IMG/VR virus record: IMGVR_UViG_2939521961_000005
Reading direction: 5' to 3' (one strand)
Length of the DNA: 51,153 bases
Origin: a virus
Taxonomy: Duplodnaviria; Heunggongvirae; Uroviricota; Caudoviricetes
Program-made: the position numbers
Shown: positions 9,001 to 12,000 of the stretch, in pieces
Layout: each line of letters opens with the position of its first letter
Numbering within the stretch: the stretch's first letter is position 1

Positions 9001-12000
9001 AGAGATGCTGATTAACGCGATTGAACAGCATGGTCCTCAGTCGGCTGACGAACTGGCGTTAATGTTCGGGATTACCTCCCGCCGGGCGAATTCATCACTG
9101 GCGATGGCTGTCAGCAAAGGTCGTCTGATTCGCGTAAATCAGGACGGTCAATATCGTTACTGCATACCGGGCGATAATTTACCGGCAGAGCCGAAAGCTG
9201 CATCGGTAACGGAAACCGATGGTAAAGCCTTTCCTCAGCCGGCAGGTGTTGCGTTACCAGTCCGGGAAGCGGAAACACAGGAAGAAATTAAAACTGAAAG
9301 TGTGGCGGTCACAGTGCAGTCACAGTCGTCGTTCATCAGAAAGCATCCGGATGGTCTGATTTTACCATCGCTGCATGTGGCTAACCGCGAGCTGCGCCGG
9401 GCAAAAGGTCAGGTTCAGAAGTGGGAGCGCTTATGCGCCGCGCTGCGGGAAATTAATAAGCATCGTGATGTCATACAGAAAATAACGACAGGAGATAACG
9501 GGTAATTTTTACAGCAGGGTGATGATATGAAAATCAGATATCATGATTTCGGCCCCGTGTCACATATGCTTATTTCCAGTACGGTGCTGGAAACAAGAAA
9601 ACATAATCACATACTGGATATGCTGCGTCTTGCTGACCCGTATCTGGTAATAAACACCAGTGGAATTTTCTTTCTGAGAAGCACTGTGTCAGGAAAAACA
9701 TCGCATGTGCTTCGGGCATATAAAACAGCAGTGCGGGAGGAAGGAGAATGAGCGAGATTAACTATCAGGAGCTGCGTGTTGAGCTGGGAGCAGCAAAAAA
9801 ACGCATAGAAGAGCTGGAGGCTAATCGTGTGGTGCTTGAGGTGGAAAATGAGAGGTTGAAACACGCAATGGCCGTAGCCCTTGAGCATATATCCGTCACA
9901 GATGCAGGACAGGCAGGTGTCGCTGCAATGATTATCTATGATGCCATGTACCACAGTGAAAAAACTGACCCCTACGCTTTTCTGGCAGAATTGCGGGCGC
10001 AGGGTGTGGAGATGGTGCGCGAACATCCAGCAATCAAACTTTGCTCTTTGACGCACATATGTGACGAGTTAGTCGCAGAGCTTCGCAAAGGAGGCAACAA
10101 GTGAGTAAAACGAATCCGGGCTGGGCAAGGCCACTTATGGCGAAAAAGCATCATTATTTTGCTGAAGGTGAAATAACAAGTACTTGCGGTGGGTGGATGT
10201 ATTTTGGCAATGAGCGTGAGCCGGATACATTCGAAAGTCCAGATGATTGTAAAAAGTGTCGTAGAAAATTAAATAAGGGGGGTAAATGAGCGCAATTAAA
10301 GAAATGCCAGTGGAACGTAATGAATATGGCTGCTGGACGCATCCTGAATATGAAAAATTCTGTGATGGTCGGGAATATATTTCAACGGAAGAGTTTAACG
10401 CCTGGATGGAGAAAAATAATCTTCAGTGGGCTATCCGTAGTATGGATGAAGATGATTTTAATCTGGACGCAGATGGCCCTGATATTTCAGCATGGGAACC
10501 TGAGCGACCAGAAGGTGAGGGATGGTTTATCGGTTCGATACATGACACCGAAGATGGTCCTGTTTGTGTATGGCTGAGAAATAAGGCCGAAGCATAAAGG
10601 CTATAAACCAACAACTAAACACTGAAAATTTAAATCAGAAATGATTTTTATTAAATCCTTAACCGGAGGGATTCCTGCACCCTCAGAACATCAGGAGACC
10701 GCCCGAAAGGGCGGTAGTGAAAAATGACTGAATTAACCAAAGAATGGCTACAGTACACGATTACCGGAATTGAGTCATCACGGGATGAAATACCGTTCGG
10801 ACTCGATGAAGATCAAAACAACATGCTTACCGCATTAAAAATTGCACTGGCATCACTGGCATCAGTATCGGATGAACGGGCAGCCTATGAATTATTTATG
10901 GAGAAGCGTTTCGGGGAATCTGTAGATCGCCGCAGAGCAAAAAATGGCGATAGAGAATACATGGCATGGGATATGGCGCTTGGCTGGATTATCTGGTGTC
11001 ACCGCGCCGCCATGCTTCAGGCTGGAAACTTTCGGGAAAATAAGGGTTCGTCAACCAATAATTTTCGGATAATCTCGGAAACGTCAACCAACTCTCCGGC
11101 AATCCCTGATGAGGTGTTGTCCGCAATCCTGAAGGTCGCCAGGCTTCGTGCAGATTTCGATGCTTCTGAAGTGGACAGGCGAGGTATCGGTAGTTGTCTG
11201 GATGAGGCCGAGCAAGAACTTATCGTTACCATTAACGAATACGCCAGTCAGATCGCAGTAGAAGCGACACAGGGGGAGAACCAATGAGCCGGCCAGATGC
11301 ATTTGCAGGCGTTGCTATAGCTATTGCTTTTCTAGTATATGTTATTTGTCGGTGGGGGTAAAAACGTTCGCCGGGATTCACACCAAGGGAGGGAATATGT
11401 CGGATGATATTTCACTGGTAATGGAAGGCGCTCTGGCTGTTATTGCTGTTGTGGGTGTTTACTGCCTGGTTGTGTTTTTGATGGAGCGCCTGGGGAACTG
11501 AATTCATTCCGTATGGGAATTCCCATATCGGGCAAAACGGTTTGCTGTAAAGCGAGAGTTAAGTAGAATTGCTGCGGGTGCTTGAGGCTGTCTGCCTCGG
11601 GCATGCCACCGTAAGGCAGACAGAGAAAAGCCCCAGTTAACATTACGCGTCCTGCAAGACGCTTAACATTAATCTGAGGCCCAATCTATGCTTCACAAAC
11701 GTAGGTTAGCCTCTTACGCGCCGAAAGGCAAGGAGAAGCAGGTTATGAAGCAGCAAAAGGCGATGTTAATCGCCCTGATCGTCATCTGTTTAACCGTCAT
11801 AGTGACGGCACTGGTAACGAGGAAAGACCTCTGCGAGGTACGAATCCGAACCGGCCAGACGGAGGTCGCTGTCTTCACAGCTTACGAACCTGAGGAGTAA
11901 GAGACCAGGCGGGGGAGAAATCCCTCGCCACCGCTGATGTGTCAGGCATCCTCAACGCACCCGCACTTAACCCGCTTCGGCGGGTTTTGTTTTTTCTGGT

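Follow-up and report, generated by a model that had tools for sequence, protein, structure and literature searches.

Introduction

The hok/sok loci are among the most studied toxin–antitoxin (TA) systems, and a close homologue of the locus described here, hokW-sokW of the Sakai prophage Sp5, has been shown experimentally to be a functional type I TA module (PMC8621323). Together with hokD/relF, hokC/mokC/sokC of K-12 and R1 hok/sok, it represents the same system as the hok part of the DNA analyzed here, a 51,153-nucleotide stretch of a Caudoviricetes virus (IMG/VR record IMGVR_UViG_2939521961_000005) that we refer to in full as the window and that consists of lambdoid prophage DNA. In the window, hok is preceded by two short open reading frames (ORFs) on the same strand, ORF1 (11284..11361) and ORF2 (11397..11501), which encode peptides of 25 and 34 aa. 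The hok gene itself shows no material difference from hokW, and neither ORF2 nor the homologue of ORF1 that stands before hokW is mentioned in the hokW-sokW study (PMC8621323). The hok/mok/sok part of the locus is already known; the flanking ORF1 and ORF2 are new.

Three kinds of described genes invite comparison with these ORFs. The small type I toxins TisB, IbsC, ShoB, LdrD, DinQ and ZorO are similar in having 19–35 aa and one transmembrane (TM) helix. However, ORF1 and ORF2 have no sequence relation to them, no antisense partner was found for either, and, unlike such toxins, ORF2 is constitutively and efficiently translated while ORF1 appears to be coupled to an operon. Phage morons, the lysogen-expressed accessory genes of lambdoid prophages, are an established concept and share more with the ORF2-hok/sok unit, which is present or absent between conserved neighbors, has its own terminator, is expressed in lysogens and, in one form, carries a promoter-like element. 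Unlike the usual moron, this cargo joins a small membrane protein to a type I TA module. Finally, the small regulatory inner-membrane proteins of enterobacteria resemble ORF2 in having fewer than 50 aa and one TM helix, in being translated during normal growth and in being conserved at the amino-acid level (PMC12648545); ORF2 differs from them in being prophage-borne, restricted to Escherichia/Shigella and without a known target.

A reading of the window made from its sequence alone had described the region as a cluster of small membrane toxins. All of the features that it placed are present, at the exact position or at most 1 nt away, but its interpretation has to be revised in part, given that ORF2 is well translated in lysogens and has no toxin homology and that ORF1 is not specific to hok. 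We consider it probable, with some reserve, that the interval consists of an ORF1 cistron at a cargo slot, an ORF2 that encodes a lysogen-expressed membrane protein within an ORF2-hok/sok moron, and a canonical hok/sok locus.

Results and discussion

ORF2 is under coding selection and is translated in lysogens

ORF2 encodes a single-pass inner-membrane peptide (WP_001278460.1, a hypothetical protein in PGAP; ECs_2755 in Escherichia coli O157:H7 Sakai). Like ORF1, it consists of one hydrophobic stretch, as had been proposed, with best 15-aa Kyte-Doolittle means of 2.73 for ORF1 and 2.97 for ORF2. Its Shine-Dalgarno (SD) sequence, GGGAGGG (11387..11393), is invariant in the alignment of copies of the window's type. 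The family comprises two forms that are roughly 50% identical, the 34-aa window-type (A-type) and a 29-aa Tritos-type (B-type), with the common motif ALA..AV...YCL.V.LM[ED]R. The B-type peptide, MLVLKCALAIAAVMAIYCLAVVLMDRLSD, was found by tblastn; it is unannotated, has an AGGAGG SD, and lies directly 5' of hok in phages Tritos, Evi and mEp460.

Substitutions in ORF2 carry the signature of a protein-coding gene. Along a minimum-spanning tree of 21 alleles there are 45 synonymous, 37 nonsynonymous and no stop changes, compared to an expected synonymous fraction of 0.28 (P=3.5e-7), and the Nei-Gojobori pN/pS ratios within the two types are 0.19 and 0.25. Alternative sense frames show no synonymous excess; a weaker excess appears in one antisense frame that shares its third positions with the sense frame. 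Since ORF1 also has a synonymous excess (see below), both small ORFs are kept here as genuine genes, in agreement with the sequence-only reading.

Expression of ORF2 is evident in published ribosome profiling (RIBOseq) of Sakai. In LB, ECs2755 had an RNA RPKM of 132.6, a footprint RPKM of 885 and a coverage of 0.95 (Hücker et al., 2017; PMC5597208, S2 Table). Its RCV of 6.79 in this medium compares with a mean of 1.55 for short annotated genes, and a second Sakai copy of ORF2 was reported as the novel translated gene XECs145 (PMC5597208). Both Sakai copies are predicted to be inner-membrane proteins with 1 TM helix, in the case of ECs2755 by PredictProtein (PMC5597208). The RNA RPKM of ECs2755 in uninduced Sakai was 133–168, whereas that of the nearby early gene ECs2758 was 7.4 (PMC5597208), which makes a lysogen-active promoter for ORF2 probable. 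When eight B-type contexts were aligned, homology was found to start just before an invariant CATATT, with TTGA(A/G)(T/G) 17 nt upstream.

ORF2 is linked to hok at almost every locus

The region from 10700 to 11560 is 100% identical to prophages in E. coli O26:H11 11368 and many other Shiga toxin-producing E. coli, and 11270–11520 is 100% identical to Sp14 of O157:H7 Sakai. In more diverged copies (88–98% nucleotide identity), the flanking genes change on both sides, but ORF2 stays intact at about 245 bp upstream of hok. Across 179 ORF2 loci from IMG/VR and genomes, the 5' signature of hok follows the ORF2 stop at 42 nt (B-type) or 74–76 nt (A-type). The exceptions are contig ends, a hok carrying an insertion, decayed hok genes on pINV and one chromosomal deletion in Shigella, and only one adequately covered locus has ORF2 without hok or a hok remnant.

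The reverse does not hold. Of the 5,426 complete E. coli genomes, 4,722 (87%) have the hokD-type module, at 10,849 places in all, and roughly a third of these places carry ORF2. The window-type ORF1-ORF2 interval accounts for 1,468 places in 674 genomes; the 29-aa cassette, at 80% coverage or more, is present in 1,701 genomes (~31% of complete E. coli), was unannotated in every row that we sampled, and often lies at the edge of a cryptic prophage remnant. No comparable upstream ORF was found at hokA, hokB, hokC or hokE of K-12, which rules out an upstream hydrophobic ORF as a general feature of hok. From this distribution, ORF2 depends on the hok neighborhood, and hok does not depend on ORF2.

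The family appears to be young and restricted to Escherichia/Shigella. Searching 1.84 billion representatives with phmmer returned 6 close variants and no distant relative, and a species-level genome scan yielded matches in Escherichia/Shigella only, plus three short contigs from metagenome-assembled genomes.

On more than 120 Shigella pINV plasmids, ORF2 is intact and hok has decayed. In pINV-type plasmids of Shigella and E. coli, such as S. flexneri pWR100 (locus L011, 1498–1700), an intact 29-aa homologue is accompanied by a 5' remnant of hok, including TTGGCG-17-TAGAAT, some 250–380 bp upstream of icsP, and the old hok promoter may contribute to transcription upstream of icsP. S. dysenteriae 1617 has a frameshifted copy of the 29-aa ORF2. 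Insertions repeatedly strike the small region from ORF1 to hok, which recalls the IS-inactivated hok loci of K-12. In two IMG/VR contigs an unidentified insertion sits exactly at the hok SD, ~220 nt past the ORF2 stop, and at another locus (L007, 451–1431) an IS5-family element (ISKpn26) has entered ORF1 at CTAG (window 11331–11334).

Variable cargo follows ORF1

ORF1 is unannotated by PGAP and encodes a single-pass hydrophobic peptide. It follows a 187-aa gene (10724..11287, + strand), a homologue of Sakai ECs_2756 that belongs to PHROG 14306 (unknown function) and has no Pfam match, and its ATG overlaps the TGA of this gene in CAATGAGCC (11282–11290). The window allele is two codons shorter than the 27-aa family M[TSNI]WPEAF...VY[SVA]ICRW[GR] to which it belongs, owing to an in-frame 6-nt indel. 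Over 36 alleles from 172 loci, there are 64 synonymous, 31 nonsynonymous and no stop changes (P=1.5e-16). The inclusion of Sp5-type relatives is what makes this result decisive, because A-type loci taken by themselves give 7 synonymous and 11 nonsynonymous changes (P=0.11, not significant). ORF1 is intact in 85 of the 88 window-type loci.

In nearly all of the 172 loci, the ATGA overlap is retained, although the identity of the upstream gene differs, being the 187-aa ORF in the window and elsewhere a DUF551 protein or orf75 of Sp5. Given this overlap with the preceding stop codon and an SD inside the upstream gene, ORF1 is most likely a translationally coupled terminal cistron, read by termination-reinitiation. 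An apparent fusion of ORF1 with DUF551 in Shigella was rejected as a clustering artefact, the 121-aa proteins concerned lacking the peptide.

The DNA past ORF1 varies. In VT2-Sakai/Sp5 and in phage pPE4, 27-aa homologues (MTWPEAF...VVYSICRW[GR]) directly precede the hok promoter without ORF2. One arrangement has hok 41 nt after ORF1, another has a terminator and other sequence with hok at 204–205 nt, and yet another has a hairpin and the 29-aa ORF2 with hok at 293–294 nt. In about 30 ORF1 loci hok is missing, and the slot is filled by parE and parD on the other strand, by an ORF6N gene or by different cargo. Because the cargo varies in this manner, ORF1 defines the upstream boundary of a cargo slot and is not specific to hok.

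Several individual loci deserve mention. At locus L201 (1407–2032) and others, a Pfam-confirmed parE/parD pair, oppositely oriented and preceded by a terminator hairpin, is followed by a homologue of 12068–12346, the gene that also follows hok in the window. Since either parDE or hok can stand before the same downstream gene, this one site accepts a type I or a type II TA module as its cargo. Some 90 nt ahead of the hok +1, phage vB_EcoS-640R1 (locus L182, 1313–1453) has a different hydrophobic ORF of 46 aa with a TTG start, ending in ...FMAVMCIEYWR, which may be either a very diverged ORF1 or another, third class of small membrane ORF at this site. The ORF1-hok region of PP818812.1, deposited as Actinobacillus phage vB_Apl-pPE4 (Actinobacillus pleuropneumoniae), is 96% identical to E. 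coli lambdoid prophages, such that its host assignment looks doubtful or the transfer very recent.

A proposed role for ORF2 and its alternatives

We propose an arrangement in which ORF1 would be the last cistron of the early (nin-region) gene block of the phage and ORF2 the first gene of a cargo cassette, ORF2-hok/sok. As ORF2 is transcribed towards hok and no terminator was found between the two, its transcripts would continue through the promoter and mRNA of hok as far as its terminator. ORF2 is expressed in lysogens, where the peptide would act as a non-toxic small membrane protein that modulates a membrane process or protein, and the adjacent hok/sok addiction module would help to retain the cassette in prophages and prophage remnants. 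A number of points weigh against this proposal. Sakai contains several near-identical copies of ORF2, and RIBOseq reads may be shared among them. No convincing promoter was found for the window-type ORF2, nor is there a transcription start site (TSS) there among the EDL933 TSSs listed. For ORF1 the support is evolutionary, the RIBOseq study having had a cut-off of 30 aa, and the commonest A-type allele has an Asp in its hydrophobic core. In a family that appears this young, the linkage of ORF2 to hok may be purely historical, and its strictness could reflect a functional tie to Hok as opposed to hitch-hiking.

If such a tie exists, ORF2 would be an overlooked third component of the phage hokD/hokW cassettes, whose 34-aa and 29-aa forms would yield three-component variants of hok/mok/sok. 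The peptide, made constitutively, might dampen or assist pore formation by Hok, or transcription and translation of ORF2 might feed or interfere with the hok promoter or produce a 5'-extended hok mRNA, thereby tuning the action of Hok or the supply of its mRNA. The near-absence of ORF2 loci lacking hok is consistent with this idea, as are the fixed spacing at which two forms of only ~50% identity abut the hok promoter, the missing terminator between the genes, and an invariant Cys in the TM segments of both ORF2 and Hok. A partner role would also fit the RIBOseq data, in which ORF2 is translated and mok/hok (ECs2754) does not appear among the translated short genes tabulated. Yet ORF2 is found at only about a third of hokD-type places, hokA/B/C/E of K-12 do without such an ORF, and hokW-sokW of Sp5 works as a TA module with ORF1 but no ORF2 upstream. 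Moreover, ORF2 stays intact where hok has decayed on pINV and where an insertion interrupts hok. We regard a partnership with Hok as a possible but unlikely explanation.

The original proposal, in which ORF1 and/or ORF2 are type I-like membrane toxins clustered with hok, is less probable still and we think it improbable overall. In size, hydrophobicity and charge both peptides fall within the range of TisB, IbsC, ShoB, DinQ and ZorO, they adjoin a bona fide type I toxin, and in one copy ORF1 is interrupted by insertion elements. However, the strong translation of ORF2 in exponentially growing lysogens argues against a repressed type I toxin, and it is unlikely that ORF2 is a silent one; together with the failure to find an antisense partner and the probable coupling of ORF1 to an upstream operon gene, a feature not known from type I toxins, it speaks against the toxin reading. 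Homology searches point the same way, and here the sequence-only reading was right that hok alone belongs to a recognized family. Neither peptide scored above any cut-off in Pfam, PHROG, NCBIfam or PADLOC, with no Pfam match at E<=1, and Rfam gave no strong match at the locus besides sok/hok and none for the small ORFs. Paralogy with Hok was rejected, as hhalign against the Hok profile returned probabilities of 0.7% (ORF2) and 0.5% (ORF1); ORF1 against ORF2 gave 3.6%. Public sources name the peptides only as 'hypothetical', 'membrane protein' or 'bacteriophage protein', and the peptide strings had no match in the literature searched. No conserved antisense promoter was found at either ORF, and Sok provides the only minus-strand TSS here among the EDL933 TSSs listed. 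An antisense promoter-like site in ORF1 (11362–11334) is not conserved in Sp5-type copies and was taken as chance.

The peptides might, alternatively, be inert and the ORFs kept because their translation, or the DNA/RNA sequence itself, has a regulatory use, such as that of a leader or spacer ORF holding ribosomes on the transcript or positioning the hok promoter. This would suit the invariant nucleotide sequence that A-type copies share in the ~12 final codons of ORF1 and in the spacer between ORF1 and ORF2, and a weak TSS within the ORF2 3' end and palindrome in EDL933. But purifying selection acts at the amino-acid level in both ORFs, and length, termini and hydrophobic character have been kept across ~50% divergence, leaving this explanation very improbable. 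The cargo-slot arrangement with a non-toxic, lysogen-expressed ORF2 is thus the one that we prefer. ORF1 and ORF2 add two entries to the catalogue of small proteins in pathogenic E. coli and Shigella, and with a conserved, translated membrane-peptide gene abutting the hok promoter in about one in three hokD-type copies, the question arises whether ORF2 affects Hok, prophage stability or phage release. Should it have no such effect, the annotation would still gain two real non-toxin genes beside an ordinary hok locus.

The hok/mok/sok locus is canonical

Positions 11576–11990 form a textbook type I TA locus of the hokD/hokW type. The product of hok (11745..11900, + strand) has 51 aa and is identical to HokD (WP_000813254.1; PGAP name hokD). 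It matches PF01848 with E=3e-23 and 81.6 bits (cut-off 22) and PHROG 251 ('MokW-like') with E=7.7e-33. The mok frame (11688..11900, + strand; 70 aa) is an in-frame N-terminal extension of hok. This arrangement matches mokC/hokC of K-12, and the Sakai mok/hok, ECs_2754, is annotated as 'regulatory protein MokC'. Both genes and the terminator of the locus (11969–11986, + strand) had been named correctly from the sequence.

The extent of the hok mRNA (11576..11990, + strand) follows from the start of the Rfam alignment, the fold, stem covariation and the terminator. Rfam RF01794 matches 11576–11750 with 114.9 bits (gathering score 59), and a 420-nt RNA from 11576 has a minimum free energy of −174.9 kcal/mol (z=−6.48). 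The 5' end of the mRNA is formed by the tac element GGGTGCTTGAGG (11576–11587, + strand), within which GGGUGCUUGAGG pairs with CCUCAACGCACCC at the fbi element CCTCAACGCACCC (11950–11962, + strand) in a 5'-3' fold-back. Directly after tac lies the 5' hairpin of the hok mRNA (11588–11623, + strand), a known conserved element, whose 10-bp stem pairs CTGTCTGCCT (11588–11597) with AGGCAGACAG (11614–11623). The stem covaries between a G-C type with CTGTCTGCCT/AGGCAGACAG (n=62) and an A-U type with CTATCTGCCT/AGGCAGATAG (n=39), with G·U variants in another 46 cases. Of the structured leader that had been described, this stem therefore stands as part of the hok mRNA, whereas the accompanying palindrome lies 5' of the hok −35 and does not belong to it.

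Promoters for both RNAs were read from the sequence, and each is matched by a start site. The hok promoter is TTTGCT-17-TAGAAT (11541..11569, + strand; −35 at 11541–11546), with TTGGCG-17-TAGAAT as the equivalent in B-type loci from our scan. Cappable-seq of EDL933 (PMC10469882) found a TSS in 9/9 samples at the first G of GGGTGCTTGAGG at a homologous hok locus, 7 nt 3' of the promoter. On the minus strand, the Sok promoter has its −35 (TTGCCT) at 11731–11726 and its −10 (TAACCT) at 11708–11703, with 17-nt spacing. A minus-strand TSS in 9/9 EDL933 samples at the equivalent of window 11696 (PMC10469882) is 7 nt 3' of this TTGCCT-17-TAACCT, which supports 11696 as the 5' end of Sok and with it the Sok-like antisense RNA that had been anticipated. 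We place Sok RNA at 11638..11696 (minus strand), its 3' end being approximate and drawn by analogy with sokC of K-12, whose geometry it matches.

Three further observations concern this locus. A plus-strand 5' end at the equivalent of window 11687, 1 nt before the mok ATG, is present in 9/9 samples at two EDL933 hok loci (NZ_CP008957.1, 1638854 and 1901659). It has no well-placed sigma-70-like promoter and overlaps the 5' end of Sok (11696, minus strand) by 10 nt. A Sok-directed RNase III product that passed enrichment may account for it, or else a true internal start. Across the hok 3' UTR and terminator (11909–11990) Rfam also matches isrK, though weakly (27.2 bits against a gathering score of 50, E=0.006) and probably owing to the two hairpins; IsrK is likewise a prophage-borne small RNA and lies beside an antiterminator region. 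Within the same 3' UTR opens a 135-aa ORF with a GTG start (11939–12346). PGAP and PHROG 1212 back only the 92-aa frame 12068–12346, and the longer one, which overlaps fbi and the terminator, is probably not used.

A palindrome and direct repeats flank ORF2

Between the window and other phages, homology of the hok module sets in at 11487, 11534 or 11557. With the hok +1 at 11576, these starting points put the two ORFs and the palindrome 5' of the hok promoter, and the interval is not a leader of the hok mRNA. The palindrome, TATGGGAATTCCCATA (11512..11527; 16 bp), is situated past the stop of ORF2 and before the hok −35. Most other copies have a perfect 22-bp palindrome, CGATATGGGAATTCCCATATCG, in comparison to which the window allele is one A short. 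It was rejected as an intrinsic terminator or repeated operator, since it has no U-tract, occurs only once in the window, and lies in a region that folds no better than shuffled sequences do (z=−0.91).

At the center of the palindrome, EDL933 has a weak plus-strand TSS in 4/9 samples (EDL933 1638685; locus L272, 23686; window ~11519). A candidate TCGACT-16-TACGAT promoter for it lies within the 3' end of ORF2 in EDL933, and TACGAT is lost in the window allele with the missing A. For this EDL933 locus the canonical hok +1 does not appear among the listed sites, which multi-mapping reads may explain.

ORF2 and the palindrome are bounded by a direct repeat. The left copy, GGGTAAAAACG (11356..11366), spans the ORF1 stop, and the right copy, GGGCAAAACG (11530..11539), reads GGGTAAAAACG in other copies. 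The left repeat coincides with one junction of a segment of ~163 bp, comprising ORF2 and the palindrome, that is missing from Sp5-type loci, where a single TAAAAACGGTTTGC leads straight into the hok −35. The flanking repeats and this single copy suggest that ORF2 and the palindrome were inserted as a unit between ORF1 and the hok promoter.

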